Origin: Croceivirga radicis
Lineage (GTDB): Bacteria > Bacteroidota > Bacteroidia > Flavobacteriales > Flavobacteriaceae
DNA length: 32,000 nt
Direction of reading: 5' to 3'
Assembly: GCF_002072105.2 (NCBI RefSeq)
Contig: NZ_MTBC01000004.1
Span: 250,913-282,912, forward strand
The notes beneath the pieces are model-generated. The model saw nothing but the letters and a program-made list of their open reading frames with translations, was not told the origin of the DNA and searched no databases. Shown here piece after piece: positions 160 through 32,000 of the stretch (position 1 is its first letter; each line of letters begins with the position of its first letter). Made by a program: the position numbers and the translations under genes.

Positions 160-265
160 CACAAAATACGCTATCTAATCATTGCTATGTGTAAAGAAAA
201 TTAAGATTCTTCTGCTTGCCGCTAATCTCTTCACACTTGTTATCTGTCGAAAAAATAGTACTTTA

Positions 266-277
266 TTGATATATCAA
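266..277. promoter_or_regulatory. Perfect 12-bp palindrome TTGATATATCAA upstream of the 314-8021 operon (candidate operator)
   Basis: Read directly from the sequence. It lies 37 nt upstream of the ATG at 314, in the only non-coding stretch before the operon. A TTGAT half-site recurs at 287-291. Confidence 0.25.
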
Positions 278-313
278 ATTAACTTTTGATGAAACTAAAC
301 TCAATAAATTGCA

Positions 314-2644
314 ATGAACCACAAGTTTTATGCATTATCCTTACTATGTTTAATAGCTATAGGATGTAAAGATGCAGTAAAAACTACCGAAATTGGGATA
401 GACCAAATTGCTGAAAGCAAAGCAATTCCCAACGAGGTAGATTTTTCACTTCATATTAAACCCATATTATCAGACCGTTGTTTCAAATGTCATGGACCCG
501 ATAAAAATGCGGTAGAAGGCAACTTATCCCTACATACCGCAGAAGAAGCTTATAAAGCATTGGGCGAGGCTCAAGGCCATTTTGCCGTTGTTCCAGGTAA
601 TCCTGAAAAAAGTTCTTTGGTAGCACGTATCTACACAGATGACTCGGGTCTGCTTATGCCGCCTCCTGAATCCAATCTAACCCTAACTGACGTAGAAAAG
701 GAGTTATTACGTAAATGGATAACGCAAGGTGCTGAATATAAAAAACATTGGGCTTTTATACCTCCTGTACAACCAAAAGTGCCAGCGTTTAAGAATACCA
801 ATTGGATACAAAATGAAATTGATGCTTTCGTATTTCAAAAATTAGAGGAAAATCAGTTTAAACCTTCAGAAAAAGCGCCAAGGGAAATATTGGTTAGACG
901 GCTGTATTTAGACCTTACCGGTTTGCCTCCAACTTTAAACGCGTTAGATTCCCTAGTTGGTTTAAAAGAGGATATCAATTGGGAAAAATTGATTGATCAA
1001 TTATTGAATTCTACAGATTATGCGGAACACATGGCCGCAGATTGGATGGAAGTGGCCCGCTATGCGGACACCCACGGCTACCAAGATGATTTTGAAAGGA
1101 CCATGTGGCCTTGGCGCGATTGGGTTATACATGCTTTTGATGAAAATATGCCGTATGATCAATTTGTTACTATGCAATTGGCAGGCGATTTGTTGCCCAA
1201 CGCAAATAAGGAATCCATTTTAGCCACAGGTTTTAATAGAAACCACAAAATTACTGCGGAAGGCGGTGTAATCCCTGAAGAATACAGAATTGAATATGTA
1301 GAAGACCGCACCAATACGTTTGGTACCGCATTTTTAGGAATGACCATGGAATGTGCCCGTTGCCATGACCACAAGTACGATCCTATAAGTCAAAAAGAGC
1401 ATTTTCAGCTTTTTAGTTTTTTCAACGGTATAGATGAAGATGGTTTAATGGCCAATGGCTCGGTAATACCCAAACCCTATATTAAAATCACCCAAGAAGA
1501 AGCGGATAAAGTGCTCGATTTTATTAACCTTTCCAAATCTCAAGAATCTTATGTCACCTCTTTGGTTATGGACAATAAGGCTAAGGAACGCCCAACGTAT
1601 GTATTAAATCGTGGCGTTTATGACCAGCCGGGAGAGCAAGTTTTTCCAGAGACACCTACCGCCATTTTACCCTATCCAGAAACCTATCCAAAAAATAGGC
1701 TTGGGTTGGCCAAATGGCTATTCCACAAAGGCAATCCACTAACGACACGTATTATGGTTAATCGCCTTTGGCAAAAAATGTACGGTAAAGGTATTGTTGC
1801 TTCTTCTTATGATTTTGGCAATCAAGGTTCCTTGCCTACGCACCCAGAATTGTTAGATTACCTAGCCATAAAATTTCAAGAAGAAAACTGGGACATCAAA
1901 AAAATGCTAAAATTTATGGCGCTTTCGGCAACCTATCAGCAATCGTCCAAAATTACCCCAGAGGCCTTAGAAAAAGACCCGGAAAATGATTGGTTGGCTC
2001 GCGCTCCCCGTATTCGATTATCAGCAAGTGCCATTCGCGACCAAGCGTTACAACTAGGCGGATTACTGCATAAAGAAATAGGTGGCCCTAGTGTAAAACC
2101 TTATCAACCAGATGGCTTATGGGAAGAAACCACCGGAGGTGGTGGTGGTAGTACGGCAACTTATGTGGTGGGCTCTGGAACCGATTTGTACCGCAAAAGT
2201 TTATACACCTTTTGGAAACGTACCGTTCCGCCACCAAGTATGATAACTTTTGATGCTTCTTCAAGAGACTTATGCTCCGTAAAGCGAGAAGACACCAATA
2301 CGCCTTTACAAGCACTGGTACTGCTTAACGACCCACAGATAATAGAGGCCGCAAGGGCCATGGCTGCTCCATATGCTGAAAAAAATGGAACTATAGATAC
2401 AGCTATAAAAGCATTGTTTAGAAACGCTACAGGCCGTATGCCTACTGCTGATGAATTAACCAGGCTAACCAGATTTCATGAAGATATGAAAACCAAAGTG
2501 GCAGAAGGCGCTATTGTACCTACAGAATATTTGGCTATTGGCAACTATACCAATGAAAAAATAACGGACCAAGAAGCATGGACCTGCCTGGCCTTGACCG
2601 CCCATGCCATACTAAACCTGGACGAAACAATAACAAGAGGATGA
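314..2644 (+). CDS. Lipoprotein with PSCyt1 (planctomycete-type cytochrome c), DUF1549/PSCyt2 and DUF1553/PSD1 domains
   Basis: Lipoprotein signal LLCLIAIGC (Cys18). Heme c motif in KPILSDRCFKCHGPDKN. DUF1549 signature NEIDAFVFQKL...RRLYLDLTGLPPT. DUF1553 signature ECARCHDHKYDPISQKEHFQLFSFF. 776-aa uninterrupted ORF. Confidence 0.9.
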   Translation: MNHKFYALSLLCLIAIGCKDAVKTTEIGIDQIAESKAIPNEVDFSLHIKPILSDRCFKCHGPDKNAVEGNLSLHTAEEAYKALGEAQGHFAVVPGNPEKSSLVARIYTDDSGLLMPPPESNLTLTDVEKELLRKWITQGAEYKKHWAFIPPVQPKVPAFKNTNWIQNEIDAFVFQKLEENQFKPSEKAPREILVRRLYLDLTGLPPTLNALDSLVGLKEDINWEKLIDQLLNSTDYAEHMAADWMEVARYADTHGYQDDFERTMWPWRDWVIHAFDENMPYDQFVTMQLAGDLLPNANKESILATGFNRNHKITAEGGVIPEEYRIEYVEDRTNTFGTAFLGMTMECARCHDHKYDPISQKEHFQLFSFFNGIDEDGLMANGSVIPKPYIKITQEEADKVLDFINLSKSQESYVTSLVMDNKAKERPTYVLNRGVYDQPGEQVFPETPTAILPYPETYPKNRLGLAKWLFHKGNPLTTRIMVNRLWQKMYGKGIVASSYDFGNQGSLPTHPELLDYLAIKFQEENWDIKKMLKFMALSATYQQSSKITPEALEKDPENDWLARAPRIRLSASAIRDQALQLGGLLHKEIGGPSVKPYQPDGLWEETTGGGGGSTATYVVGSGTDLYRKSLYTFWKRTVPPPSMITFDASSRDLCSVKREDTNTPLQALVLLNDPQIIEAARAMAAPYAEKNGTIDTAIKALFRNATGRMPTADELTRLTRFHEDMKTKVAEGAIVPTEYLAIGNYTNEKITDQEAWTCLALTAHAILNLDETITRG

Positions 2645-4134
2645 GCGAAAAGAAAATTATACAAGAACGTTTGCTGCAAGAAAACAGAAGAGCTTTCTTA
2701 AAAAAATCTGCTTTAGGTATTGGTGGTTTAGCGTTAAGTTCCCTTGCCGGTTGTAGTTTTTTTAGTAAAAATGAAAATGGAATTTTAACGCAAACCAACG
2801 GGACTATTGGCACCAAAGGAATATTAGAAAATTTACACCATAATGCCAAAGTAAAACGAGTAATCTATTTGTTCCAAAGTGGCGGCCCATCTCAATTAGA
2901 GCTTTTTGATTATAAGCCTTTACTTAACAAACGTAGAGGAGAAGACCTACCAGAATCCATCAGAAACGGCCAACGATTAACGGGGATGACTTCCGGTCAG
3001 GATAAATTTCCTTTAGTGGGTTCCTTATTTAATTTTAATCAACATGGAACTAATGGTACCTGGATGAGCGATTTGCTTCCTTATACTTCAAAGATTGTAG
3101 ACGACCTGTGTATTATCAAATCCATGTATACAGAAGCTATTAACCATGACCCTGCAGTAACCTTTTTTCAAACGGGTTCCCAACAACCGGGCAGACCTTG
3201 TATTGGTTCATGGATGAGTTACGGGTTGGGTTCTGAAAATGATAATTTACCTGCATTTACCGTGCTCCTTTCTCGTGGCACGGGAAGGCCAAATGGCCAA
3301 CCATTGTACACTAGATTATGGGGTAATGGTTTTTTACATTCTCAGCACCAAGGAGTACAATTTAGAGCCGCCAAAGACCCGGTATTATACTTGAACGACC
3401 CTGAGGGAATGACCAAAATGGGGAAACGGGCCATGCTAGATATGTTGGCAGAACTTAATGAGCACCATTATAACGACTACGGAGACCCAGAGACCCAAGG
3501 TAGAATTAGCCAGTATGAAATGGCCTACCGCATGCAAACTTCCGTGCCAGAGGTAATGGACACCTCCAACGAACCAGATTATGTGTACAAAATGTACGGC
3601 GCAGATGCTAAAATTCCTGGTACTTACGCCGCAAATTGTCTGTTGGCTAGAAAATTGGCAGAGCAAGACGTTCGTTTTATACAATTGTACCACATGGGCT
3701 GGGACCAGCACGATAATTTACCCGGAGCTATAGAAAAACAAGCCAAAGATGTAGACCAAGCTTCCGCAGCTTTGGTAGAAGATTTAAAACAACGTGGTTT
3801 ATTAGAAGATACCTTAGTAATCTGGGGAGGAGAATTTGGCCGAACCAACTATTCCCAAGGTATTCTTACCGATACCAATTACGGTAGAGACCACCATCCA
3901 AGATGTTTTACCATGTGGCTGGCCGGCGGTGGTGTTAAACCGGGATTGGTATATGGAGAAACCGATGATTTTGGCTACAACATAACCCAAAACCCTGTAC
4001 ATGTACATGACTTCCAAGCTACATTGCTACATCTAATGGGTATAGACCATGAAAAGCTTACTTATAAATATCAAGGTAGGCGTTTTAGATTAACCGATGT
4101 GGAAGGCCATATTGTAAAAGATATTTTAGCCTAA
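2641..4134 (+). CDS. DUF1501 family protein (sulfatase/alkaline-phosphatase-like fold) with twin-arginine signal
   Basis: The ATG at 2641 overlaps the upstream stop (ATGA at 2641-2644). The signal NRRAFLKKSALGIGGLALSSLAGC combines a Tat consensus with a lipobox-like LAGC. DUF1501 signatures: VIYLFQSGGPSQLELFDYKP and GRDHHPRCFTMWLAGGGVKPGLVYGETDD. The ORF-track start at 2578 would put 21 non-signal residues in front of the Tat motif, so I rejected it. Confidence 0.9.
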   Translation: MSEKKIIQERLLQENRRAFLKKSALGIGGLALSSLAGCSFFSKNENGILTQTNGTIGTKGILENLHHNAKVKRVIYLFQSGGPSQLELFDYKPLLNKRRGEDLPESIRNGQRLTGMTSGQDKFPLVGSLFNFNQHGTNGTWMSDLLPYTSKIVDDLCIIKSMYTEAINHDPAVTFFQTGSQQPGRPCIGSWMSYGLGSENDNLPAFTVLLSRGTGRPNGQPLYTRLWGNGFLHSQHQGVQFRAAKDPVLYLNDPEGMTKMGKRAMLDMLAELNEHHYNDYGDPETQGRISQYEMAYRMQTSVPEVMDTSNEPDYVYKMYGADAKIPGTYAANCLLARKLAEQDVRFIQLYHMGWDQHDNLPGAIEKQAKDVDQASAALVEDLKQRGLLEDTLVIWGGEFGRTNYSQGILTDTNYGRDHHPRCFTMWLAGGGVKPGLVYGETDDFGYNITQNPVHVHDFQATLLHLMGIDHEKLTYKYQGRRFRLTDVEGHIVKDILA

Positions 4135-5165
4135 TGCAGCGTAGAAGTTTTATTAAGAAGACAAGTGTTGCATCTGTTGGTCTGGTATCGTTGCCCCTAT
4201 TTGCCCAAGCAAGAACCAATGAAAATGGTATTGTTGGCCATGGTGATTTTAAATATAAGGTAAATGTGAACTGGGGAGCGCTCAATAGTCAATATTACCC
4301 TGTTAATGATTGCCATGAAATGGTAATGGATAAAAAAGGGCGTTTGTATTTGTTGACCAATAATACCAAAAATAACGTCTTGGTTTACAATAAGGATGGA
4401 GACTTATTAAACGCATGGGGAACGCAGTATCCTGGTGCCCATGGTTTAACCCTACACGATGAAAATGGTACGGAATATTTGTACATAAGCGATAACAACA
4501 GGCACGAGGTTATTAAAACAACCTTAGACGGAAAGGTAATTCAAGTCTACTCTTGTCCATTAGAAAGTGAAAAATACGAAAGTAAGTCAAGCTTTATTCC
4601 TACGGAAACGGCTATTGCTTCAAATGGGGATGTTTACATTGCAGATGGTTATGGAGCACAATATATAACGCATTACAATGCTAAGGGCGAACTTCTAAAC
4701 ATTTTTGGAGGCAAAGGCTCCCAAATGCATCATTTTGATAATGCCCACGGTATATGCATAGATACTAGAAATGGTAAACCTCCTACCCTGCTCATCACAG
4801 CCAGACAACAGAACAAACTAAAACGTTTTTCAATGGCAGGTGAACTTATTAGCACCATAGACTTGCCTGGGGCTTATATCTGTAGGCCAGTAATACATAA
4901 TGAGAACGTGTACTTAGCTTCCATCTGGTCTCATGATGGTTCTCCGGATACCGGTTTTATTTGTGTTTTGGACAAAAACGACCAATTGGTTTCAGCTCCA
5001 GGAGGATGCGTACCTAAGTATACTGATGGTAAATTAGGAAACATGTACCAAACCTTATCCATTTTTAAGCATCCACATGATGTTTGTGTTGATGAGGACG
5101 AAAATTTGTACGTTCCTCAATGGAATAGTGGAAAAACCTACCCTATAAAATTAACCCGTGTGTAA
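4134..5165 (+). CDS. Tat-exported NHL-repeat / six-bladed beta-propeller protein (peptidyl-alpha-hydroxyglycine lyase-like)
   Basis: TAATG stop/start overlap at 4132-4136. Signal MQRRSFIKKTSVASVGLVSLPLFAQA. Recurrent blade-like segments: GRLYLLTNN, EYLYISDNN, GDVYIADGY, ENVYLASIW, ENLYVPQWN. Confidence 0.75.
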   Translation: MQRRSFIKKTSVASVGLVSLPLFAQARTNENGIVGHGDFKYKVNVNWGALNSQYYPVNDCHEMVMDKKGRLYLLTNNTKNNVLVYNKDGDLLNAWGTQYPGAHGLTLHDENGTEYLYISDNNRHEVIKTTLDGKVIQVYSCPLESEKYESKSSFIPTETAIASNGDVYIADGYGAQYITHYNAKGELLNIFGGKGSQMHHFDNAHGICIDTRNGKPPTLLITARQQNKLKRFSMAGELISTIDLPGAYICRPVIHNENVYLASIWSHDGSPDTGFICVLDKNDQLVSAPGGCVPKYTDGKLGNMYQTLSIFKHPHDVCVDEDENLYVPQWNSGKTYPIKLTRV

Positions 5166-5977
5166 TGAAGTACGTTTTAAGATGGATTTATTTTAAAGGC
5201 ATACTTATTATTGTATTAGTAGGTTATACTTCCGGAGCTTTTGGACAAGAAAATAATCAACAATCTACTTTTGCGTTGGCAGCACCGGTGGTGTATGTAG
5301 ATTCCCTTCTATTCACAAAACAAGCCTTGTTAAGCTTTACAGAAGGAGAAAAAGGGAGTGTTTTACATTATCAATTAGCAGATGATAAACCAAGAACCGC
5401 AAATCATAAAAAGCCTATTGAAATTAAAACAACAAGCACTTTAAAGGTATGGAGTACCCATCCATATTATCAAACTAGTGATACCACAACCCTAAAGTTA
5501 ACTAAGGCGAATAGTTTACTTTCTGATGCAAAAATTAGCATAGAACCAGAACCTAAAGCTGCTTATAGGGGTAACAAAGAAGCCAGCCTCAAAGATTTGA
5601 TTAAAGGCACAACCAATTTTAGAACGGGTAACGATTGGTTGGGTTTCCAGACTACTGAGGTAAACTTCACAATCAATTTAAAAGAACCTACTACCCTATA
5701 TTTAGTAAGTTTGGGAGTTTTAAGAGATTATGGTTCTTGGGTTTTTCTACCAAAACAAATAACTGTAGAAAGTAATAAGAAAATTATTGGACAAGTAAAC
5801 ATCCAAATACCAAAAGAGGGAGAAAAAACAGCCTCTACCTTTTTACACGTTCCTATTAAAAAAGGCACTTACAAGGAGCTACAAATCCAAATAAATACAT
5901 TACCAACTATACCCCAATGGCACTTGGGCCAAGGCACAATTCCATGGCTGTTTATAGACGAACTACTGATTAATTGA
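5165..5977 (+). CDS. Secreted hypothetical protein with an Fn3/chitobiase-C-like segment and a discoidin-like beta-sandwich module
   Basis: TAATG overlap at 5163-5167. N-terminal signal/anchor ILIIVLVGYTSGAFGQ. The C-terminal half aligns by eye with the C-terminus of the next gene (GTTNF..WLGF...SWVFLP...WLFIDELLIN versus GSTNF..WLGY...SWIFSP...FIFIDEVVLN). Confidence 0.7.
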   Translation: MKYVLRWIYFKGILIIVLVGYTSGAFGQENNQQSTFALAAPVVYVDSLLFTKQALLSFTEGEKGSVLHYQLADDKPRTANHKKPIEIKTTSTLKVWSTHPYYQTSDTTTLKLTKANSLLSDAKISIEPEPKAAYRGNKEASLKDLIKGTTNFRTGNDWLGFQTTEVNFTINLKEPTTLYLVSLGVLRDYGSWVFLPKQITVESNKKIIGQVNIQIPKEGEKTASTFLHVPIKKGTYKELQIQINTLPTIPQWHLGQGTIPWLFIDELLIN

Positions 5978-5981
5978 CCAA

Positions 5982-8021
5982 ATGAATTTAGCAAACCTGC
6001 ACCCCTTATTGGTACACTTGCCCATAGGCATTTTTATACTAGCGTTTTTACTAGAATTATGGCAGTGGATACGTAAAAAAGACGAAAAAGAAACCATATT
6101 ATTTATACTAGCCACTACCATATTCTTCTCTTTATTATCCATTGCTACCGGTTGGTTTTTAGGAGATAATGGCGGTTATGATGTAGACATGCTCAACAAT
6201 CACAAATGGATGGGTATTGCCTTTACCCTATGCGCTATAACCTTGTTTGTATTACGCTATTGTACCAAAGCTATTTATAGAAAAATTTATAATCTATTAC
6301 TCGTCATAGGTATAGTATTGCTATCCTTAACAGGGCATTTTGGTGGTAACATGACGCATGGTGAAGACTTTTTATTTACAGACCATAGTCCAAAGGCAAT
6401 AGCAATTGCAAATATAGAAAAGGCTCAGGTATACGCAGAATTGGTGCAACCTGTACTAGAAGCAAAGTGCGTAAGCTGCCATAATACATCCAAAACTAAG
6501 GGTGGTTTGCTATTAACATCTAAAGCAGAAATTTTAGCAGGCGGAGAAAGTGGCCTGTTATTCGATACCATTTCTGGCCATTATACCAATTTATTTATGC
6601 ATCGGCTACACTTGCCTATGGAAGATGATGAACACATGCCTCCAAAAGGAAAACAACAACTAAGTGCAGAAGAGATTACGCTCTTAGATTGGTGGATTAA
6701 AAACGAGAACTGTTTTGATTGTACTGTTGAAGATTTAGAAAAAGATAGTCGTTTAGAACCTTATTTTGCTAGTTTAGAAGAAGACCAGAGCGATTTGTCT
6801 CAATTGGCGAAAAATGCAAACTTTATTCCAAGAGAAGATTTGGAAAGAATTACAAAAATGGGAATTTCTTTACAGCAGTTATCAGAAGATAATCCTTTAC
6901 TTATTGCCAATTTTAACCGCCAAAAAAATATAACAACTAGCCATTTTGATGCTTTAGAAAATATAGCATCTAATGTGGTAGAAATCAATCTTAGTTACAC
7001 CAATTTCAATGACGATTTAATAACCGCGCTTAAGCCATACAACAACCTTATAAAACTGCAGCTTAATAATACTACGGTAACCGATAAGGGAATAGAAAAG
7101 CTAAAAAACAAACCGTATCTAACCTCTTTAAACCTTTTTGGCACTCCTATTAAAAAGCTCAATTCTGAACAGTTGGGGCAGCACAAAAAATTGACCCATG
7201 TTTATGTTACGCCACAATCTTTAACGCAAGAAAGCATTACATCCTTAAGTAACGCAAATATTATTTTGCAAGGATTGGATATCAATGAAAAATTTAAAGC
7301 GAGTAAAATAACATCGCCTGTAATTGTAGCCAATCAAGAAGTTTTTAAAGATTCGCTACGTATAACTATAGAAACTTCATTTGAGGAAGCAACCACCTAT
7401 TTTGGAGTGGTAAATAAAACTAGCGACACGCTATTTAAGGTCTATACCAATCCATTTTTCATTTCTAAAACCCAGACAGTTTTGGCTTTTAGTGAAAAAG
7501 AAGGTTGGGGCAAAAGTGAATATGCCAAGCGCGACTTTATAAAAAGTGGCATCCCTATTAAAGAAGGAAAATTGCATGCCAAACCACACGAAAAATATGC
7601 AGCACAGCATGAAGTAACCTTATTTGATGGTAAACGAGGAAGCACCAATTTTGTAGATGGTAAATGGTTAGGATACGAGGAACAAAACTTCAAGGGTACG
7701 TTTCTATTTGATGATAACAAAGAAATAAGTAGTATAAGTGTTAGTCATTTATCCGCACCCACTAGTTGGATTTTTTCGCCAATAGGCTATAAAGTGATTG
7801 GAATTACCGAAAATGGGGCTAAAAAAACCATAAAAACCATTGATTTAGGTAAAAACAAGCCTAATGTTGATGTACAACGCAACCTCATCACCTTAGAATT
7901 TGATGCGATAAAAGTTAAAGGAATTCAATTGGAAATTGTAAACCAAGGTAAAAACCCAGAATGGCACACAGACCCCGGAGGTAATAGTTTCATTTTTATT
8001 GATGAAGTGGTTTTAAATTAA
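5982..8021 (+). CDS. Membrane-anchored c-type cytochrome domain protein: DUF2231-like 4-TM domain, PSCyt1, leucine-rich repeats and a discoidin-like C-terminal module
   Basis: N-terminal hydrophobic helices carry HPLLVHLPIG and LTGHFGGNMTHGEDF. PSCyt1 motif VQPVLEAKCVSCHNTSKTKGGLLL (CxxCH at 6468-6482). LRR-like block: INLSYTNFNDDLITALKPYNNLIKLQLNNTTVTDKGIEKLKNKPYLTSLNLFGTPI. The C-terminus is paralogous to the 5165-5977 product. Confidence 0.85.
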   Translation: MNLANLHPLLVHLPIGIFILAFLLELWQWIRKKDEKETILFILATTIFFSLLSIATGWFLGDNGGYDVDMLNNHKWMGIAFTLCAITLFVLRYCTKAIYRKIYNLLLVIGIVLLSLTGHFGGNMTHGEDFLFTDHSPKAIAIANIEKAQVYAELVQPVLEAKCVSCHNTSKTKGGLLLTSKAEILAGGESGLLFDTISGHYTNLFMHRLHLPMEDDEHMPPKGKQQLSAEEITLLDWWIKNENCFDCTVEDLEKDSRLEPYFASLEEDQSDLSQLAKNANFIPREDLERITKMGISLQQLSEDNPLLIANFNRQKNITTSHFDALENIASNVVEINLSYTNFNDDLITALKPYNNLIKLQLNNTTVTDKGIEKLKNKPYLTSLNLFGTPIKKLNSEQLGQHKKLTHVYVTPQSLTQESITSLSNANIILQGLDINEKFKASKITSPVIVANQEVFKDSLRITIETSFEEATTYFGVVNKTSDTLFKVYTNPFFISKTQTVLAFSEKEGWGKSEYAKRDFIKSGIPIKEGKLHAKPHEKYAAQHEVTLFDGKRGSTNFVDGKWLGYEEQNFKGTFLFDDNKEISSISVSHLSAPTSWIFSPIGYKVIGITENGAKKTIKTIDLGKNKPNVDVQRNLITLEFDAIKVKGIQLEIVNQGKNPEWHTDPGGNSFIFIDEVVLN

Positions 8022-8054
8022 AAAAAGGTCTGGCTTATACCAGACCTTTTTTTT
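8022..8054. terminator. Bidirectional rho-independent terminator between convergent genes
   Basis: AAAAAAGGTCTGG-cttata-CCAGACCTTTTTTTT. The GC core stem is 8027-8033/8040-8046, flanked by an A-run and a T-run so it can function on both strands. It sits between the stop at 8021 (+) and the acs stop at 8058 (-). Confidence 0.8.
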
Positions 8055-8057
8055 AAT

Positions 8058-9965
8058 TTATAGTTTCTCTTTTATAATCTGGTCTACCACTTCAGGATTT
8101 AATAACGTAGACGTATCGCCTAAATTACTTAAATCATTAGAAGCAATTTTTCTAAGTATTCTCCTCATAATCTTACCACTACGGGTTTTAGGCAGTCCGG
8201 TAACGAATTGTATTTTATTCAGCTTCGCAATAGGGCCAATTTTATCAGAAATTTGCTGATTTATCTCATTTCTTAGGTTATTTCTATCCCTAGATTCTCC
8301 GGTTTCTTTTAAAATTACGAAGCCGTAAAGTGCATTTCCCTTAATATCATGCGGAAAACCAACAATGGCAGATTCCGCAACCGCAGGATGCTCGTTTATG
8401 GCATCCTCTATAGGTGCAGTACCCAAATTATGACCAGAAACAATAATTACGTCATCTACCCTACCCGTAATACGGTAATAGCCTACCTCATCACGTAATG
8501 CGCCATCCCCGGTAAAATACATGTTCTCAAAAGCGGAAAAATAGGTGTCTTTATAGCGTTGGTGGTTGCCCCAAATTGTTCTAGCCATAGAAGGCCAAGG
8601 GTATTTTATACACAATCTACCGTCTACCTGATTACCCTTTATCTCTTTGCCGTTTTCATCCATTAAAGCGGGTTGTATTCCTGGTAAGGGTAAAGTGGCG
8701 TAAGTAGGCTTTGTTGGCGTACTAAACGGTATAGGAGATATCATAATGCCACCGGTTTCGGTTTGCCACCAGGTATCTACAATAGGGCAATTCTTTTCGC
8801 CAACATGATCATTGTACCAATGCCAAGCTTCCTCATTTATAGGCTCTCCAACCGTTCCTAAAACTTTCAAGGACGATAAATCATATTTGGTAACAAAATC
8901 AATATTTTCTTTAGCCAGGGCCCTAATTGCCGTTGGCGCTGTATAAAATTGTGTAACCTTATGTTTTTGAACAATTTCCCAGAAGCGGCCATAATCGGGA
9001 TACGAAGGTACACCCTCAAACATAACCGTTGTAGCCCCGTTGGCCAAAGGACCGTAAACAATATAGGAATGCCCTGTAATCCAACCAATATCTGCAGTAC
9101 ACCAATACACATCTTCTTCTCTATACTGAAAAACGTTTTTAAATGAATAGGCAGAATAGACCATATAACCACCCGTAGTATGCATCATTCCCTTGGGTTT
9201 ACCCGTAGAGCCAGAAGTGTACAAAATAAATAGTGGGTCTTCAGAATCCACTATTTCTGGCACGCAATCGCCATAGGCTTCATCTAATAAAGGTTGTAAC
9301 CATTCATCTCTATTTTCTTTTAGTTTGATATCGGAATGGATACGCTTGGCTACCAATACTTTTTCTACCGTTGGGCAGTCCTCTAAAGCCTCATCTACAA
9401 TACCTTTTAAGTCGATGGTTTTTGCTCCACGATAAGAACCATCTGAGGTAATCACCATTTTAGCCTCACAATCTTGAATTCTAGTTGCTAAAGCCGAAGC
9501 CGAGAAACCGGCAAACACTACGGAGTGTACGGCTCCAATACGCGCGCAGGCCAATAGGGATATAGCCAATTCTGGAATCATAGGTAAATAAATAACTACC
9601 CTATCCCCTTTTTTTATACCCTTATCCTTTAACACATTGGCAAACTTAGATACGCGTTTGTGCAGTTCTAAATAGGATATATGCTCCGCCGCTTCATCTG
9701 GATTGTTAGGTTCAAATAAAATGGCCGTTTTATTTCCCCTAACATGTAAATGACGGTCAATACAATTTTCAGTAATGTTCAATTGCGCACCAGAAAACCA
9801 TTTTACTTCTGGTTTGCTAAAATCCCATTCTAATACGTTGTTCCATTTTTTACGCCATAAGAAGTGTTCTTCTGCTATCTCTTCCCAAAAATTTTCAGGA
9901 TTTCTAACGGATCTACGGTATACTTGAAAATATTCTTCTAAATGTTTAATGTGGTAATTACTCAT
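8058..9965 (-). CDS. acs: Acetyl-CoA synthetase (AMP-forming)
   Basis: 635 aa. Acs-type N-terminus: FWEEIAEEHFLWRKKW..WF.GAQLN. AMP-binding motif YTSGSTGKPKG. Also WWQTETGG, and C-terminal LPKTRSGKIMRRILRKIA containing the catalytic/acetylated Lys context. Confidence 0.97.
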   Translation of the reverse strand: MSNYHIKHLEEYFQVYRRSVRNPENFWEEIAEEHFLWRKKWNNVLEWDFSKPEVKWFSGAQLNITENCIDRHLHVRGNKTAILFEPNNPDEAAEHISYLELHKRVSKFANVLKDKGIKKGDRVVIYLPMIPELAISLLACARIGAVHSVVFAGFSASALATRIQDCEAKMVITSDGSYRGAKTIDLKGIVDEALEDCPTVEKVLVAKRIHSDIKLKENRDEWLQPLLDEAYGDCVPEIVDSEDPLFILYTSGSTGKPKGMMHTTGGYMVYSAYSFKNVFQYREEDVYWCTADIGWITGHSYIVYGPLANGATTVMFEGVPSYPDYGRFWEIVQKHKVTQFYTAPTAIRALAKENIDFVTKYDLSSLKVLGTVGEPINEEAWHWYNDHVGEKNCPIVDTWWQTETGGIMISPIPFSTPTKPTYATLPLPGIQPALMDENGKEIKGNQVDGRLCIKYPWPSMARTIWGNHQRYKDTYFSAFENMYFTGDGALRDEVGYYRITGRVDDVIIVSGHNLGTAPIEDAINEHPAVAESAIVGFPHDIKGNALYGFVILKETGESRDRNNLRNEINQQISDKIGPIAKLNKIQFVTGLPKTRSGKIMRRILRKIASNDLSNLGDTSTLLNPEVVDQIIKEKL

Positions 9966-9994
9966 TGTAAAATATAAGTCTTTATTGTTTCTGT

Positions 9995-11770
9995 TTAATG
10001 TTCTATAGCTTCACCTGCACCACTAGGTATTCTAATGTTCTCCACTATTTCTTGTACATGTTCTGGTGGTGCGGTTGTAACGGATGAAACCACTAGTGCA
10101 ATGCTAAAATTCACCAACATACCTACGGTACCAAAACCTTCTGGAGAAATACCAAACCACCAATATTCTTGAGTTGCGGTATCTGGATTTCCTATCCATC
10201 CCAGTTTAAAGCGCGCTATGTAATAGCAGGTTATGGCCAAACCGGCCAACATACCCGTTATGGCACCTTCCCTATTCATGCGTTTACTAAAAATACCCAA
10301 AACAATTGCAGGGAAAAAAGACGATGCCGCCAAGCCAAAAGCCAAGGCTACCACGGATGCGACAAATCCTGGTGGATTAATACCAAAATAGCCCGCTACC
10401 AAGACTGCAACCAACGATGATAACCTCGCAATCAATAATTCTTTCTTATCTGATATTTCTGGGGCTATTTGTTTTTTTACCAAATCATGGGAAATTGAAG
10501 TAGAAATTACCAACAGTAAACCTGCTGCGGTAGACAAAGCTGCTGCTAGACCGCCAGCCGCAACCAAAGCAATGATCCAATTGGGTAAATTAGCTATTTC
10601 CGGATTGGCCAATACGGTAATGTCCCGATCTACATACAATTCATTCACTGTTGGGCTTGGATTGGCTATTAAACGTTCTCCGTTTACCCCTCTTTTTGTT
10701 TCAAAAATTGGTTTGGCATCTGCTAAGGCATTACCGGGAGCATACTGTATTTTTCCATCTTTGTTCTTATCTGTCCATGCAATAAGCCCTGTATCTTCCC
10801 ATTTGGTAAACCAGGCCGGTATTTCTTTATATGGAGTGTTTTGTACCGTTTCCATCAAATTGGTACGGGCAAACACAGCAATTGCGGGCGCAGTGGTATA
10901 TAGAATTGCAATAAAAAGCAAAGCAAAACCAGCAGACTTACGGGCATCTTTTACCTTTGGAACTGTAAAAAACCGAATAATTACATGGGGTAAACCAGCA
11001 GTACCCATCATTAATGCCGCTGTTATAAAAAAGACATCCATTTTAGACTTCGTGCCATCTGTATATGCGGTAAAACCTAAATCTGTCATTAAACCATCTA
11101 GCTTATCCAATAAATAAATACCATCGCTTCCGGCTGCCCCCATTCCTAGCTGTGGTACGGGATTACCCGTAGCCATCAAAGAAATAAAAATTGCGGGGAC
11201 CATAAAGGCAAAAATCAGTACACAATATTGGGCCACTTGGGTATAGGTTATTCCCTTCATTCCACCTAAAAAAGCGTAGAATAATACCACGGCCATACCA
11301 ATGTACACTCCTGTATTTACCTCAACGTCTAAAAAACGACTAAATACAACGCCCACACCTCGCATTTGGCCCGCCACATAGGTAAAGGAAACAAATAACG
11401 CCGCCACAATAGCCACCGTTCTTGCTACATTTGAATAATACCTATCTCCTATAAAATCCGGAACGGTAAATTTTCCAAATTTTCTCAAATAAGGTGCCAA
11501 GAGTAGTGCTAGAAGTACATAACCGCCTGTCCAACCCATTAGATAAACCGAGCCATCATAACCTGAAAAGGCAATTATACCGGCCATGCCCAAAAAGGAT
11601 GCGGCAGACATCCAATCTGCTGCGGTAGCTAACCCATTTGCCAAAGGAGAAACACCTCCGCCGGCAACATAAAATTCTTTTGTAGAACCTGCCCTAGACC
11701 AAATGGCTATTCCTATATAAAGGGCAAACGTAATACCCACCAAAATAAATGTCCACGTTTGTATTCCCAT
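9995..11770 (-). CDS. Sodium:solute symporter family protein (VC_2705-like large subunit, probable acetate/monocarboxylate uptake)
   Basis: 591-aa polytopic membrane protein with an SSF-like N-terminus (TKEFYVAGGGVSPLANGLATAADWMSAASFLGMAG). Its start overlaps the stop of the DUF4212 gene (TAATG). It lies directly upstream of acs. Confidence 0.88.
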   Translation of the reverse strand: MGIQTWTFILVGITFALYIGIAIWSRAGSTKEFYVAGGGVSPLANGLATAADWMSAASFLGMAGIIAFSGYDGSVYLMGWTGGYVLLALLLAPYLRKFGKFTVPDFIGDRYYSNVARTVAIVAALFVSFTYVAGQMRGVGVVFSRFLDVEVNTGVYIGMAVVLFYAFLGGMKGITYTQVAQYCVLIFAFMVPAIFISLMATGNPVPQLGMGAAGSDGIYLLDKLDGLMTDLGFTAYTDGTKSKMDVFFITAALMMGTAGLPHVIIRFFTVPKVKDARKSAGFALLFIAILYTTAPAIAVFARTNLMETVQNTPYKEIPAWFTKWEDTGLIAWTDKNKDGKIQYAPGNALADAKPIFETKRGVNGERLIANPSPTVNELYVDRDITVLANPEIANLPNWIIALVAAGGLAAALSTAAGLLLVISTSISHDLVKKQIAPEISDKKELLIARLSSLVAVLVAGYFGINPPGFVASVVALAFGLAASSFFPAIVLGIFSKRMNREGAITGMLAGLAITCYYIARFKLGWIGNPDTATQEYWWFGISPEGFGTVGMLVNFSIALVVSSVTTAPPEHVQEIVENIRIPSGAGEAIEH

Positions 11771-12024
11771 TACTCGTCTAGATTAAATTTCTTGTCCAAA
11801 CGATTCATAAGAACAACATAAATAAAAATAAGCAGCACAAAAACATATATAGAACCTTGTTGGGCAAACCAAAAGCCCAATTTAAAACCGCCTAAACGGA
11901 TGGTATTTAATTGTTCTACCCACAGTATGCCAAAGCCATAAGAGACTAAAAACCAAATAGCCAATAAAATAGCTAAATAGGTAAGATTAAAACGCCAGTA
12001 TTTCTTGTGTTGTTCAGTTTGCAT
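11770..12024 (-). CDS. DUF4212 protein (putative solute:sodium symporter small subunit)
   Basis: 84 aa with two hydrophobic helices (YWRFNLTYLAILLAIWFLVSYGFGIL...GFKLGFWFAQQGSIYVFVLLIFIYV). Translationally coupled to the symporter, which is the classic arrangement for this family. Confidence 0.85.
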   Translation of the reverse strand: MQTEQHKKYWRFNLTYLAILLAIWFLVSYGFGILWVEQLNTIRLGGFKLGFWFAQQGSIYVFVLLIFIYVVLMNRLDKKFNLDE

Positions 12025-19080: not shown

Positions 19081-20076
19081 CTATAACGTGTAATTCAAGT
19101 AAAATAGCAAACGCTGTTTTATTTTAACATCGTCTGCAAATAATTCTTGACGTAAGGGAATACCAATGTCCGCACCTACAACCAATCTTTTTAGACTCAA
19201 CTCTGCCCCTATTGTACCCAAATGCATATACCCATTGGTATCTGGTAATTGGTCTCCGTACTGTTCTATTTTTTGGAAAAAATCGCCACTTAACCCTACA
19301 AATGGGGCTAATACGTTTGTACCTACCAAAAAACCATTGAACACCTTGGCATTATAGCTTAGTTGGTCTCCAAATCGATACGCGTTCCTGTTTTCGCCTT
19401 TTAAAAAATAGCTTCCTGTAGCGTTAATCCCAAACATGTTCTTGCTATAGCTATAGCCAGCGGAAAAAATAGCATCGGTACTACCGGTACCCAATTGAAA
19501 ACCTGGATTTACCCTTTCCGTAAGTACTTGTTCAAATTCACCCGTTGGTAGCTTTATTCCCATTCCAAACCGTAGGGAATGACCTGTAAACACCGGCATT
19601 GAAATCCTGCTTGCATCAGCATCCTCATCTTGAATCTGGTTCTTTTTAAAATTTAGGGTATACCAACCTATTAAACTAATATCCCCTAGACCGTTCAACT
19701 GCTCCGTACGGTCTGTAAACTCCCTATTTAAATCTTGGTAGGGTACCGTTGCCGTAATATGAAAATTAGAGGCAATTGGTATTTTTGCCCATACTTGATA
19801 GGTATTAAAATGTTCCTGACTAGTAGGACTGTTCTCAAAAATACCATCCTTAGATTTAAACTGCTGATAACTATAGCGAACACCTATAAAGTTGGTATTA
19901 CCCAACGTTCCAAAGCCAAAATTCCCTCCCGTTGTGGCACAGCCACAGAAATCGCAATCAAATTTGTATGTTCCCAAAGGTTTCGGGCAAGGATTGGCAT
20001 TTGCCATAAATGCTACCAAAATAGAATAGAGAAATAGACTAAAACTCCGCAAACCTTTTGTCTTCAATAAATTCAT
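19081..20076 (-). CDS. Outer-membrane beta-barrel protein with a Cys-rich N-terminus (putative small-solute/metal channel)
   Basis: Signal peptide ...LFLYSILVAFMANA with an AxA cleavage site. The mature N-terminus is NPCPKPLGTYKFDCDFCGCATTGGNFGFG. After that come alternating amphipathic strands rich in G/Y/F, ending in an aromatic-rich terminal strand (LLFYLNYTL). Confidence 0.65.
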   Translation of the reverse strand: MNLLKTKGLRSFSLFLYSILVAFMANANPCPKPLGTYKFDCDFCGCATTGGNFGFGTLGNTNFIGVRYSYQQFKSKDGIFENSPTSQEHFNTYQVWAKIPIASNFHITATVPYQDLNREFTDRTEQLNGLGDISLIGWYTLNFKKNQIQDEDADASRISMPVFTGHSLRFGMGIKLPTGEFEQVLTERVNPGFQLGTGSTDAIFSAGYSYSKNMFGINATGSYFLKGENRNAYRFGDQLSYNAKVFNGFLVGTNVLAPFVGLSGDFFQKIEQYGDQLPDTNGYMHLGTIGAELSLKRLVVGADIGIPLRQELFADDVKIKQRLLFYLNYTL

Positions 20077-21088
20077 TATCCGTTAATGTTTTTAAAAATG
20101 CTATTATATTTTCCTTTTCAGTAATTGATAAGGGTATACCCAAACTTCCGTTACTATCTATTAAGCTTGGATCCACAGTACCATTGGCAACCATGCCATT
20201 GGCATAAAAATCCATTACCGCTTCCAAGGTTCCAAACCTACCATCATGCATGTAAGGAAATGTCAGTTCTATATTCCTTAAACTAGGCACCCTAAATTTG
20301 TAATGGTCCTCTTGAAATCCACTTACTCTTTTTCGGCCTTCTTCTTCAGGAAAATTTGGGTTCATGGGTAACCCATTGTTTCTGTAGCTTTGGTCCGTAA
20401 ACAATTCGCCTGCATGGCAATTAGCACATTTTTGTCTAAAAGTTTCTAAACCGGCCAATTCTTTGTCCGTTAGTATTTCGCCTTCTCCCCTACTGTATTT
20501 GTCATATCTACTGTTACCAGAAACCATTTGCAGCATAAATTGGGATAGTGCTTTCAATAATCGCTCACTATTTATCACATCATCTCCATAGGCTTTGGTA
20601 AACAATTTAGGATATTCTTTGTCTGCCCTTAACTTAGAAAGTACGTTAGGGATACGCTCGTTCATTTCCACCTCGCTCGTTATAGGAATTATTGGTTGCA
20701 GGTCTAAATGCGTAGCTGCACCATCCCACGTAAATTCATTAAAAAAAGCAAGATTATGCAAGGGTTGTGCGTTTCTAAATCCTTCCAATCCATTAACACC
20801 GTGACTCACCGTATGCCCATGATGCGTAAAGGAAAACGCCTGTTCATGGCAAAAACCACAGCTAACAACACCGGTAGAAGACAAGCTTCCATCATAGAAT
20901 AGTTTCTTACCCAATTCAAAACCTTCCTCGGTTAAAGGGTTTACCTCTAAATTGTAGGCAACCTCAGGAAAGTTGGTAGGTATAGAAAGTTCCATTGGTG
21001 TTGGTACCGCTATATATTCTTCCTCAGCGTTGTTTTGGCATGCTATAATTACCGCAACAACAGCTAATAGTACTATCCACTTTTGCAT
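20039..21088 (-). CDS. Di-heme cytochrome c peroxidase of the MauG/MbnH type (lipoprotein)
   Basis: Lipobox VIIAC. Two CxxCH motifs (SCGFCHEQ and CANCHAG). CCP/MauG signatures: LFYDGSLS, FRVPSLRNIELTFPYMHDGRFGTLEAVMDFY. Confidence 0.9.
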   Translation of the reverse strand: MQKWIVLLAVVAVIIACQNNAEEEYIAVPTPMELSIPTNFPEVAYNLEVNPLTEEGFELGKKLFYDGSLSSTGVVSCGFCHEQAFSFTHHGHTVSHGVNGLEGFRNAQPLHNLAFFNEFTWDGAATHLDLQPIIPITSEVEMNERIPNVLSKLRADKEYPKLFTKAYGDDVINSERLLKALSQFMLQMVSGNSRYDKYSRGEGEILTDKELAGLETFRQKCANCHAGELFTDQSYRNNGLPMNPNFPEEEGRKRVSGFQEDHYKFRVPSLRNIELTFPYMHDGRFGTLEAVMDFYANGMVANGTVDPSLIDSNGSLGIPLSITEKENIIAFLKTLTDNEFIEDKRFAEF

Positions 21089-21141
21089 TGCAATACCTAT
21101 TTACCTTCCCCTTGTTATTAGCAAGGAGAAGGTTTTATTTT

Positions 21142-21924
21142 TTAGTTATGCACGTGGTCTACCGTGAAGATTTTAGAAGTATTCACCGCTATTTGTGGCG
21201 ATTTTACAGGATCTACATGAATTTGTGCCTTATCTGCCAAATACAAGATTGTTTCTGCGTTTAGAACGCCTGCCAAATCTGCAACTATATGGATTTCTGG
21301 AGCTATGTCGGTTCGCAATTTGGCGGAAACTGGTAAATCTAGGGTAATTTCCTTATAATTATCCAAGGCGCTACCATGGCTTCCCATGTGTATGGCAAAA
21401 GCAGTTTCTTCTGTACTGCCATCAGAACTAAAACTTCCCTCATAACGAATAAATTTATATCCTGCTTGCCAAGACCATAACATACCCGCATCTGTTGCAA
21501 TAGCTAAAAAATCGCCCTGCCCTTCAGCTCCTTGAAGGTATTTCTCTTGGTCTACCCCAATACCAAAACTAATTTTCGTGTAATTACCAGCTGGCACGTT
21601 GGGTAAAGAAATAAAGCGAGAATCGTTATCAGATTCATCAATAACAAAAAGAGATTCGTCTTTTGGATAGGTAAATACCGTACCGTCTTCTTGCGTAACA
21701 CTTATGTTGCTCACAATGTATTTAAAGGTATCTATAGTTAAGCGTTCGGTACCATTTCCTGGGTAAGAGGTTCCCAATAACAAATCGGAACCTGCATAGG
21801 CATTATCAAATTCAATTTTTAAGGTGCCTTCACCTGATATTTGGTCCACCTTGTCATCATCCTTACTACAAGACATACCTATAATTAGCAGCATACCAAA
21901 TGCCGCATATTTTAAAACTTTCAT
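21142..21924 (-). CDS. MbnP-like lipoprotein (putative copper-binding partner of the adjacent peroxidase)
   Basis: Lipobox IIGMSC followed by SKDDDK. The 260-aa beta-rich protein carries FKYIVSNISV, GMLWSWQAGYKFIRYEG and FAIHMGSHG. I recall these as typical of flavobacterial MbnP-family proteins. It sits directly upstream of a MauG/MbnH-type peroxidase. Confidence 0.65.
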   Translation of the reverse strand: MKVLKYAAFGMLLIIGMSCSKDDDKVDQISGEGTLKIEFDNAYAGSDLLLGTSYPGNGTERLTIDTFKYIVSNISVTQEDGTVFTYPKDESLFVIDESDNDSRFISLPNVPAGNYTKISFGIGVDQEKYLQGAEGQGDFLAIATDAGMLWSWQAGYKFIRYEGSFSSDGSTEETAFAIHMGSHGSALDNYKEITLDLPVSAKLRTDIAPEIHIVADLAGVLNAETILYLADKAQIHVDPVKSPQIAVNTSKIFTVDHVHN

Positions 21925-27260: not shown

Positions 27261-27272
27261 TTAAAAATGTAA

Positions 27273-28928: not shown

Positions 28929-28939
28929 TATACTAATTT

Positions 28940-31945: not shown

Positions 31946-32000
31946 AAATTCATAGTTTGTGGTTATTATTATACGTGTGATAATCACACCATTCAAATAT

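Follow-up and report, generated by a model that had tools for sequence, protein, structure and literature searches.

Proteins with DUF1501 or DUF1549/DUF1553 domains are among the most expanded families of Planctomycetota and Verrucomicrobiota and are common in marine and soil Bacteroidota. The module that unites them in Planctomycetes, Verrucomicrobia and Lentisphaerae, in which PSCyt1, PSCyt2 and PSD1 domains accompany DUF1501, was described in silico in 2012, with its function left open (Kamneva et al., PMC3542564). The domains themselves were defined in Rhodopirellula baltica, and the module was discussed by He et al. in 2017 (PMC3542564, PMC5615132). The 2012 description covers the twin-arginine translocation (Tat) signal, fusions to carbohydrate-binding modules (CBMs) and a four-gene form that includes a PSCyt1/WD40 protein, and the accompanying survey found Bacteroidota carriers in "a few species" only (PMC3542564). 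For PSCyt genes, CBM fusions, nearby sulfatases and a proposed role in electron transport have been reported (PMC5615132, PMC3542564), and their density is higher in genomes from the oxic layer (PMC5615132). The present study concerns a five-gene operon (open reading frames ORF1 to ORF5) of Croceivirga radicis, Flavobacteriaceae, at positions 314-8021 on the + strand of the 32,000-nt stretch of DNA that was analyzed, hereafter the window. The operon is best read as the Bacteroidota form of the "planctomycete cytochrome/DUF1501" module: the three-domain architecture of ORF1 is identical, a Tat-signal DUF1501 gene is adjacent, the cytochrome motifs are kept, carbohydrate-binding-type domains accompany it, and the four-gene version likewise adds a second PSCyt1 protein, here ORF5 and there PSCyt1/WD40. 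With an estimated probability of about 0.45, we propose that the operon specifies a membrane-tethered, respiratory-chain-linked periplasmic enzyme with the DUF1501 protein and ORF1 as its catalytic core.

The statement of the initial annotation that the DUF1549/DUF1553 plus DUF1501 pair has no experimentally defined function agrees with the literature searched: none of the 12 papers there that mention DUF1501 assigns it a function, no paper names DUF1501 together with DUF1553, and DUF2231, the membrane domain of ORF5, is mentioned only in a database paper.

A conserved gene module of Bacteroidota

The genes of the operon and the elements that bound it are the following.

160..313, + strand: non-coding leader of 154 nt, between the upstream stop codon (157-159) and the ORF1 ATG, from the frame 1 translation
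314..2644, + strand: ORF1, 776 amino acids, lipoprotein with PSCyt1, PSCyt2/DUF1549 and PSD1/DUF1553, putative di-heme cytochrome c
2641..4134, + strand: ORF2, 497 amino acids, Tat-exported DUF1501 protein, alkaline-phosphatase/sulfatase-superfamily-like
4134..5165, + strand: ORF3, 343 amino acids, Tat-signal NHL-repeat beta-propeller; accessory
5165..5977, + strand: ORF4, 270 amino acids, Sec-signal protein, paralogue of the Fn3_assoc/F5-8-type-C-like C-terminal region of ORF5; accessory
5982..8021, + strand: ORF5, 679 amino acids, DUF2231 with four transmembrane (TM) helices, PSCyt1, leucine-rich repeats (LRR), Fn3_assoc/CHB_HEX_C and an F5/8-type-C-like domain
8020..8053, no strand assigned: terminator-like hairpin, bidirectional and intrinsic, with a 14-bp stem, an A-run and a T-run, found by scan and by direct reading

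The comparison set was anchored on ORF5, a relative of which is encoded by at least 593 genomes, and comprised 80 loci on contigs taken at one genome per species; these were compared by tBLASTn with the five proteins and by clustering all ORFs of the loci against one another. All 80 belong to Bacteroidota, specifically to Flavobacteriaceae, Saprospiraceae, Cytophagales, Chitinophagales and Sphingobacteriales. Upstream DNA of at least 5.5 kb was available for 54 loci, and in 45 of these ORF1 and ORF2 lie directly upstream of ORF5 on the same strand. The genes are therefore syntenic in related genomes and make up a module that is conserved and self-contained. Eighteen of these 45 carry all five genes in the order of the window, 25 are three-gene clusters (ORF1-ORF2-ORF5) and 2 have ORF3 without ORF4. 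The only families that recur around the anchor are these five (78 loci for the anchor family, 55 for ORF1, 55 for ORF2, 31 for ORF3 and 26 for ORF4), the next most frequent family being found in 7; ORF1 and ORF2 are essentially never apart, and the spacing between genes is in most cases -4 to +16 nt. The tight unit expected by the initial annotation is thus conserved. Its view of three further, obligatorily coupled partners has to be given up, however, because ORF3 and ORF4 are accessory, as the 18 five-gene and 25 three-gene clusters demonstrate, and ORF5 is missing beside an ORF1-4 cluster of Phaeodactylibacter. Conservation shows a core of ORF1, ORF2 and ORF5, with ORF3 and ORF4 as accessories. 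The proteins are also conserved to different degrees: ORF2 is the most conserved of the set, at 76-87% identity from Flavobacteriaceae to Saprospiraceae, followed by ORF1 and ORF3 (about 55-69%), ORF5 (30-52%) and ORF4 (25-45%), a ranking that fits a catalytic core accompanied by faster-evolving binding modules. In Cytophagales and Chitinophagales the module takes a divergent form, type B, in which ORF2 is 45-52% identical and ORF5 is about 450 amino acids long and devoid of the C-terminal domains. Some type-B loci (L055, L061, L067, L069, L075 and L076) contain additional genes between ORF2 and the short ORF5 or just downstream of ORF5; these encode a TIM barrel of the xylose-isomerase-like kind with a Tat signal (AP_endonuc_2) and, in two of the loci, a protein resembling L-rhamnose mutarotase (rhaM).

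Natural fusions join members of the cluster. In one (P0415), the domains DUF2231-PSCyt1-PSCyt2-PSD1 form a single 813-amino acid protein that is, in effect, the ORF5 anchor joined to the ORF1 body; on three metagenome contigs (L081-L083; gene 1079-3520 in L081) it is followed, with a 4-nt overlap, by a DUF1501 gene. In a second, also from a metagenome and with very little flanking context (P0472), a TM-PSCyt1 unit is joined to NHL repeats. Together with the invariant gene order, these fusions provide the best available support for a model in which ORF5 assembles, physically or functionally, with ORF1/ORF2 and with ORF3, and they strengthen the case both for a putative complex and for putative wiring through its hemes. 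The competing idea that the five are co-transcribed but independently acting periplasmic proteins, whose adjacency reflects co-regulation only, draws on the coming and going of ORF3 and ORF4, on loci in which ORF5 and the ORF1/ORF2 pair occur apart, and on the many ORF1/ORF2-type pairs found in varied contexts in Planctomycetes-Verrucomicrobia-Chlamydiae (PVC) genomes (PMC3542564). It does not readily account for fusions in which an ORF5-type anchor is continuous with an ORF1-type body or with NHL repeats, for invariant order and overlaps of the translational-coupling type across Bacteroidota classes, or for the near-absolute association of ORF1 with ORF2. Moreover, LRR domains, one of which ORF5 appears to carry, are typical protein-docking modules. 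Given the fusions and the conservation of the motifs described below, we regard independent action as the least probable of the alternatives considered here.

Within the window, the organization is that of an operon: same strand, overlapping or near-zero junctions, one leader and one terminator, with the junctions kept in homologous loci. The best reading is that the five genes form one expression unit. Read from the sequence, ORF1 and ORF2 overlap by ATGA (2641-2644), ORF2/ORF3 and ORF3/ORF4 meet at TAATG (4132-4136 and 5163-5167), and ORF4 and ORF5 are separated by the 4-nt gap CCAA (5978-5981). The stop codons of ORF5 and of a convergent acetyl-CoA-synthetase-like gene are 36 nt apart, and this gap is filled by the hairpin, AAAAAAAGGTCTGG-CTTATA-CCAGACCTTTTTTT at 8020-8053. 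These junctions on one strand, the 154-nt leader (160-313) and the bidirectional hairpin had all been listed in the initial annotation and are all seen, as are its three CxxCH motifs over two proteins (ORF1 residues 56-60 and 347-351, ORF5 residues 163-167) and its export signals (the AIGC lipobox of ORF1, the Tat motif plus LAGC of ORF2, the Tat motif of ORF3, the Sec signal of ORF4 and the TM segments of ORF5).

Heme motifs, membrane anchor and DUF1501 protein

The sites and domains of ORF1 and ORF5 that bear on the proposed mechanism are the following.

479..493, + strand: ORF1 heme motif 1, CFKCH, residues 56-60; invariant in alignment A2, motif present in every full-length homologue
1352..1384, + strand: ORF1 motif 2, CARCHDHKYDP, residues 347-357, inside DUF1549; conserved
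5982..6365, + strand: ORF5 DUF2231 membrane domain, residues 1-128; four TM helices with His predicted at their periplasmic ends
6468..6653, + strand: ORF5 heme c site, CVSCH (residues 163-167) plus HMPPKGK (residues 218-224); invariant in alignment A1
6942..7217, + strand: ORF5 leucine-rich repeat region, about residues 321-412; family profile against LRR ectodomains, E 8e-18
7314..8018, + strand: ORF5 Fn3_assoc/CHB_HEX_C_1 and F5/8-type-C-like region, about residues 445-679; family profile and Pfam matches of homologues

ORF1, with its lipobox AIGC at residues 15-18, contains PSCyt1 (E 5e-17, residues 56-119), PSCyt2/DUF1549 (3e-82, residues 168-374) and PSD1/DUF1553 (3e-96, residues 461-721), all three matches far over the curated Pfam cutoffs. 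Its homologues across the Flavobacteriaceae are 63-69% identical, and both CxxCH motifs are kept in 50/50 full-length homologues, motif 1 in the form CF[KA]CHGPD and motif 2, the divergent type-B proteins included, as C-x-x-C-H-[DS]-H-[KP]-Y-D-P. Met115, within a conserved MPPP, is a candidate axial ligand of the motif 1 heme, just as Met219 is a candidate ligand in ORF5; from their conservation in MPPP and HMPPKGK, these methionines are likely to be axial ligands. Sequence and profile searches of the PDB gave no significant match to a solved relative of ORF1.

The window ORF5 is 100% identical to BUL40_08125. It matches DUF2231 (PF09990; E 2e-8, 34.6 bits against a cutoff of 26.4, residues 5-125) and PSCyt1 (1e-7), and exactly one CxxCH is found in 80/80 ORF5 homologues. 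AlphaFold2 (AF2) predicts helices at residues 3-31, 36-59, 68-93 and 97-120 with predicted local distance difference test (pLDDT) scores of 85-95. Five histidines of this domain (His7, His12, His74, His119 and His126) are invariant in alignment A1. His12 and His74 also vary little or not at all among 118-150 diverse representatives, in which the other three are at least 90% conserved. With the topology suggested by the positive-inside loops RKKDEKE and RYCTKAIYRK and by the necessarily periplasmic location of the heme c domain, all five histidines are predicted to lie at periplasmic helix ends, where they may form a periplasm-facing heme or metal site. A search with residues 1-135 against 1.84 billion representative proteins returned 3,522 relatives; among the 118 that were scanned, DUF2231 was recognized in 109, PSCyt1 in 96 and LRR in about 46, the individual models LRR_4, LRR_8 and LRR_6 in 27-46. 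Past the heme domain, residues 243-247 (6708-6722) read NCFDC, a CxxC that is invariant in the Flavobacteriaceae alignment A1 and that the consensus of a more diverse set of relatives (A5/A6) does not show; it could serve this lineage as a disulfide or as a metal site.

With respect to domains, Pfam bears out PSCyt1, DUF1549, DUF1553, DUF1501, NHL and DUF2231 as named in the initial annotation, whereas LRR, F5/8-type-C and the beta-sandwich of ORF4 have no Pfam match at E<=0.01. The assignment of LRR, Fn3_assoc and F5/8-type-C to ORF5 comes from the family profile and from Pfam matches of homologues and not, at that threshold, from the window protein. Beta-hexosaminidase 6q63 is matched by the same family profile over its last ~220 residues (E 7e-38).

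ORF2 is a clear DUF1501 protein (E 2e-158, 528 bits). Its start at 2641, in preference to the first ATG at 2578, is backed by homologues of 497 amino acids. Residues 15-22 form the Tat motif NRRAFLKK, with RRxFL found in 54/58 homologues, and a LAGC lipobox follows; its cysteine is not conserved in homologues (alignment A4). Invariant in the same alignment are S84 (within GxPSQ), D90, K92, N168, H169, D355, H357, E398, D417, H418 and H419. The sulfatase/phosphatase fold put forward in the initial annotation finds partial support. Compared by hhalign with S1 sulfatases from the same loci, ORF2 aligns at 81% probability (E 1e-5) over 93 columns in its C-terminal third, the segment that corresponds to the sulfatase metal-ligand segment ("SDNG") and the next strand, and its invariant GWDQH and GRDHH may resemble the bimetal sites of the alkaline-phosphatase superfamily. 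On the other hand, the Pfam model Phosphodiest (PF01663) scores 19.9 bits against a cutoff of 23, Sulfatase (PF00884) gives no match at E<=0.01, and searches of the PDB by sequence and by profile yielded no significant solved relative. ORF2 differs from S1 sulfatases in further respects: GGPSQ follows the first strand in place of C/S-x-P-x-R, a motif that is absent from alignment A4, their metal-ligand pair D-N is aligned with E-F, and ORF2 is Tat-exported and always accompanied by a cytochrome partner. There is thus modest direct support for a distant relationship of ORF2 to the alkaline-phosphatase/sulfatase superfamily, and, since it lacks the formylglycine motif, ORF2 is not a formylglycine sulfatase.

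This relationship, and the fact that DUF1501 is the most conserved member of the set, could also be taken to mean that ORF2 with ORF1 is a plain esterase, phosphatase or sulfatase-like hydrolase without redox turnover, in which the hemes have structural, sensory or regulatory roles and ORF5 is a tether and binding scaffold. LRR and CBM-type domains, typical of binding and not of catalysis, would suit such a scaffold, as would the absence of ORF5 from some clusters. However, three CxxCH motifs and the candidate methionine ligands are strictly conserved across orders, which would be costly for a purely structural role, the cytochrome domain is kept in 96/118 DUF2231 relatives, and the anchor-cytochrome unit is retained in fusion P0415. 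Motif conservation and the fusions make a hydrolase of this kind quite unlikely in our estimation.

ORF3 occurs in 31/80 loci (about 40%), always between ORF2 and ORF4/ORF5. It matches NHL (E 1.6e-9, 37.8 bits against a cutoff of 20) and carries the Tat motif QRRSFIKK, with a Tat motif present in 27/31 homologues. In a PDB profile search, TRIM NHL domains came first (E 1e-15), and peptidyl-alpha-hydroxyglycine alpha-amidating lyase (PAL; 3fvz, 7e-11) was the only enzyme among the top matches; NCBIfam gave a weak match to ScyF. Both PAL and ScyF are NHL-repeat propellers with six blades. Three invariant histidines, H103, H205 and H315, lie ~100 residues apart and may recall the three-His zinc site of PAL. 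A sub-alignment with PAL gave an ambiguous repeat register, in which its zinc and catalytic residues were not unambiguously aligned and the three histidines could not be mapped onto it, and ORF3 differs further in having a Tat signal and in being an optional member of its cluster. Of the "lyase-like propeller" of the initial annotation, the NHL propeller and the similarity to PAL stand, while the match is a generic NHL match in which PAL ranks behind TRIM and the metal site is unmapped. ORF3 is possibly a second, optional enzyme.

ORF4, present in 26/80 loci and almost always alongside ORF3, aligns by BLASTP with ORF5 residues 491-679 (E 3e-13, 25% identity; window 5165-5977 against 7452-8018). 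The alignment shows that ORF4 and the last ~190 residues of ORF5 are paralogues, so that the operon carries the putative binding module of its anchor a second time, as a free secreted protein. Its own Pfam result is a sub-threshold Fn3_assoc match only; a homologue carries CHB_HEX_C_1/Fn3_assoc. That homologue is on a Phaeodactylibacter-type contig (L084, 1-13552), which reads GH92-GH92-sulfatase-ORF1-ORF2-ORF3-ORF4 (GH, glycoside hydrolase family). It has another ORF4-like gene as well, and no homologue of ORF5 lies within 8 kb. The described protein closest to these modules is the GH20 beta-hexosaminidase 6q63, whose C-terminal Fn3_assoc/CHB_HEX_C and F5/8-type-C (CBM32-like) domains are matched by the ORF5 profile over the region of which ORF4 is a paralogue. 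ORF5 and ORF4 have no glycoside-hydrolase catalytic domain, in contrast to that enzyme, and carry these domains on a membrane cytochrome or standing alone behind a signal peptide.

Leader motif and genomic context

The leader contains one element that is conserved beyond the window.

239..251, + strand: conserved leader motif GTTATCTGTCGAA, pattern GYYRTYNGTCGAA; candidate promoter or regulator site, alignment A10

In 14 Flavobacteriaceae loci the pattern GYYRTYNGTCGAA has one exact match, located 60-80 nt before the ORF1 homologue, and the motif is unique in the window even when 1 mismatch is allowed. Across 85 loci the pattern recurs just once more, in Allomuricauda sp. d1 (L001:17094-17106), where it is upstream of a SusC/SusD pair. 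A LytTR response regulator and histidine kinase pair is found directly upstream of ORF1 in six loci, and in the Allomuricauda locus this two-component pair adjoins both motif-bearing units. The position of the motif near ORF1 and the LytTR pair suggest that the operon begins with a regulated promoter of its own; the motif may be the regulator or promoter site of a small regulon, and its second occurrence is a hint that one species may regulate glycan uptake together with the operon. An origin of the motif in an extracytoplasmic function (ECF) sigma system was considered and rejected, the two genes upstream of the motif-bearing SusC in the Allomuricauda locus encoding CBM9-like and GHL10 proteins and not a sigma/anti-sigma pair. 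Scans of the window for sigma-70-like promoters (24 found, 25.7 expected) and for the Bacteroidetes -7 element TAnnTTTG (44 against 48 expected) were at chance level, there is no exact -7 box in the leader, and Rfam recognizes no family anywhere in the window, leader included.

Hints of a link to glycans come from three directions: the match of the ORF5 and ORF4 C-termini to a beta-hexosaminidase, the sulfatase, GH92 and rhaM neighbors in some loci, and the motif at the SusC/SusD pair. Occasional neighbors in the loci are sulfatases, the formylglycine-generating enzyme (FGE), GH92, Tat-signal xylose-isomerase-like TIM barrels and rhaM, of which sulfatases, FGE and GH92 are each present in about 5-10 loci. 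These neighbors agree with the published observation that PSCyt genes are located near sulfatases and bear CBMs (PMC5615132). As a functional clue, the sulfatase, FGE and GH92 neighbors were set aside, their frequency by our estimate not being clearly above that of the marine Bacteroidota background, and they are kept as suggestive; the glycan and sulfatase links as a whole are only suggestive.

The remaining features of the window are as follows.

1-159, + strand: 3' end of the upstream gene, product ending ...DRHTALGDAY...KKRFIWF; by eye only, DRHTALGDAY resembles the ExoIII motif of DEDDh 3'-5' exonucleases
8058-12024, - strand: acetyl-CoA-synthetase-like gene, sodium:solute symporter and an 84-amino acid membrane ORF overlapping the symporter start, convergent with the operon
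19081-20076, - strand: 331-amino acid ORF without a Pfam match, overlapping the CCP_MauG gene by 38 nt
20039-21924, - strand: di-heme CCP_MauG peroxidase-like gene (20039-21088) beside an MbnP-family gene (21142-21924), an MbnH/MbnP-like pair
24396-31996, - strand: GH115 (alpha-glucuronidase family), SusD and SusC, a small polysaccharide utilization locus

The acetyl-CoA-synthetase-like gene and the symporter are not kept next to the operon in related loci.

Proposed mechanism and comparison with described systems

Gene order, coupling, domains, motifs, conservation and fusions are observed directly; heme loading, complex formation, the direction of electron flow and the substrate are proposals. 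In the mechanism that we favor, the di-heme lipoprotein ORF1 and ORF2 would be the catalytic pair, acting on a periplasmic and most likely glycan-derived substrate, while ORF5 would supply the third c-type heme and the link to the membrane. Electrons would pass along three c-type hemes, from ORF1 to ORF5, and to or from the membrane through DUF2231; the LRR region of ORF5 would dock partner proteins, and the F5/8-type-C-like domains of ORF5 and ORF4 would hold the substrate or an envelope glycan. The favored direction is oxidation of the substrate, which would feed the aerobic respiratory chain, because c-type domains with His/Met ligation that are fused to periplasmic enzymes are more often the electron acceptors of dehydrogenases and because PSCyt genes are denser in oxic-layer genomes.

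Several observations weigh against this proposal. The five proteins contain no recognizable redox-catalytic domain of the flavin, pyrroloquinoline quinone (PQQ), molybdenum or Fe-S type. The AF2 model of ORF1, built from a 25-sequence alignment, is poor (pLDDT 54.8) and gives no fold evidence for DUF1549/DUF1553, and a fold search with the DUF2231 model of ORF5 found no solved structural relative, so that any cofactor named for this domain is a guess. The Phaeodactylibacter ORF1-4 cluster has no ORF5 nearby, which makes ORF5 dispensable in some lineages, and in about 7 loci, mostly from Saprospiraceae metagenome-assembled genomes, ORF5 occurs without ORF1/ORF2 within 10 kb. As for a glycan substrate, sulfatase and GH neighbors are not clearly commoner than would be expected in marine Bacteroidota: by our estimate, a sulfatase lies within 10 kb in about 10 loci compared with roughly 13 expected at a gene frequency of 1%. 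The module also lies outside SusC/D loci: a SusC-like family is present in 5/80 loci and never directly adjoins the five genes, the nearest SusC/D pair in the window being 16 kb from the operon and on the opposite strand.

The direction of electron flow is also the point at which a different mechanism has to be weighed. The DUF2231 domain of ORF5 could instead, through its His-rich site, take up electrons from menaquinol at the periplasmic face and pass them through the c-type hemes to ORF1/ORF2, which would then act as a reductase, an oxygen- or peroxide-activating enzyme or a repair enzyme, in the manner of MsrPQ or of a quinol-fed di-heme peroxidase. Such a flow would suit the conserved His cluster of DUF2231, which adjoins the heme c domain, and the two heme motifs of ORF1, one of which would be a relay and the other catalytic, as in di-heme peroxidases and MauG-type proteins; the Tat export of ORF2 parallels that of MsrP, and a self-contained module tied to no polysaccharide utilization locus is what would be expected of a housekeeping or repair function. 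However, ORF1 has no sequence similarity to CCP/MauG, the true CCP_MauG gene of the window being unrelated, no quinol site is recognizable, the usual acceptor role of His/Met c-type domains on periplasmic enzymes speaks for the opposite direction, and the carbohydrate-binding-type domains are left unexplained. On balance we think reversed flow unlikely. Oxidation of a periplasmic substrate remains the reading that we prefer. A more far-reaching reading, in which we have little confidence, would make the module a new class of respiratory-chain-linked periplasmic enzyme. In this reading, an alkaline-phosphatase-fold DUF1501 protein and the heme-bearing DUF1549/DUF1553 protein would perform redox-coupled chemistry, such as oxidative ester or glycoside cleavage, and three c-type hemes would lead to a His-rich, four-helix membrane redox module (DUF2231), not recognized before, whose electron partner would be the quinone pool or a terminal oxidase. 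If this were true, the PSCyt/DUF1501 families, which are very large in Planctomycetota, Verrucomicrobiota and Bacteroidota, would gain a function.

The operon shares its overall logic, though not membership, with MsrPQ and with the three-subunit flavoprotein/gluconate dehydrogenases, in which a Tat-exported catalytic protein is likewise combined with dedicated heme carriers, such as the multi-heme cytochrome c subunit of the dehydrogenases, and with a membrane partner that connects it to the respiratory chain. Its proteins are not related to theirs in sequence and have no molybdenum, flavin or PQQ domain; in addition, the hemes would be distributed over two proteins, and the histidines of the DUF2231 anchor are predicted at the periplasmic face only, in place of a trans-membrane di-heme b bundle. 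The comparison with the PVC module is closer. The system was called undescribed by the initial annotation, which is too strong for ORF1 and ORF2, whose module has been known in silico since 2012 (PMC3542564). Within the literature searched, it holds for their partner: neither the DUF2231-cytochrome-LRR-CBM protein nor the five-gene form, the NHL and ORF4 accessories, the fusions or the leader motif were found there. In particular, the second cytochrome is a polytopic DUF2231-PSCyt1-LRR-Fn3_assoc-F5/8C protein and not PSCyt1/WD40, there are additional NHL-propeller and ORF4 genes, the host belongs to Bacteroidota, and the unit is self-contained and preceded by a conserved leader motif. We therefore do not see a new category of system in the operon; it is one version, conserved, clearly bounded and open to experiment, of a large uncharacterized family. 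The Bacteroidota form is compact, self-contained and, in the loci examined, usually a single cluster, with an explicit membrane partner and natural fusions that mark its member proteins, and cultured strains of Pedobacter, Mucilaginibacter, Dyadobacter, Maribacter and Arenibacter are among its carriers. With this form the long-standing question of the role of the "planctomycete cytochrome" module becomes testable, and DUF2231 emerges as a candidate for a new membrane module of redox or metal type.

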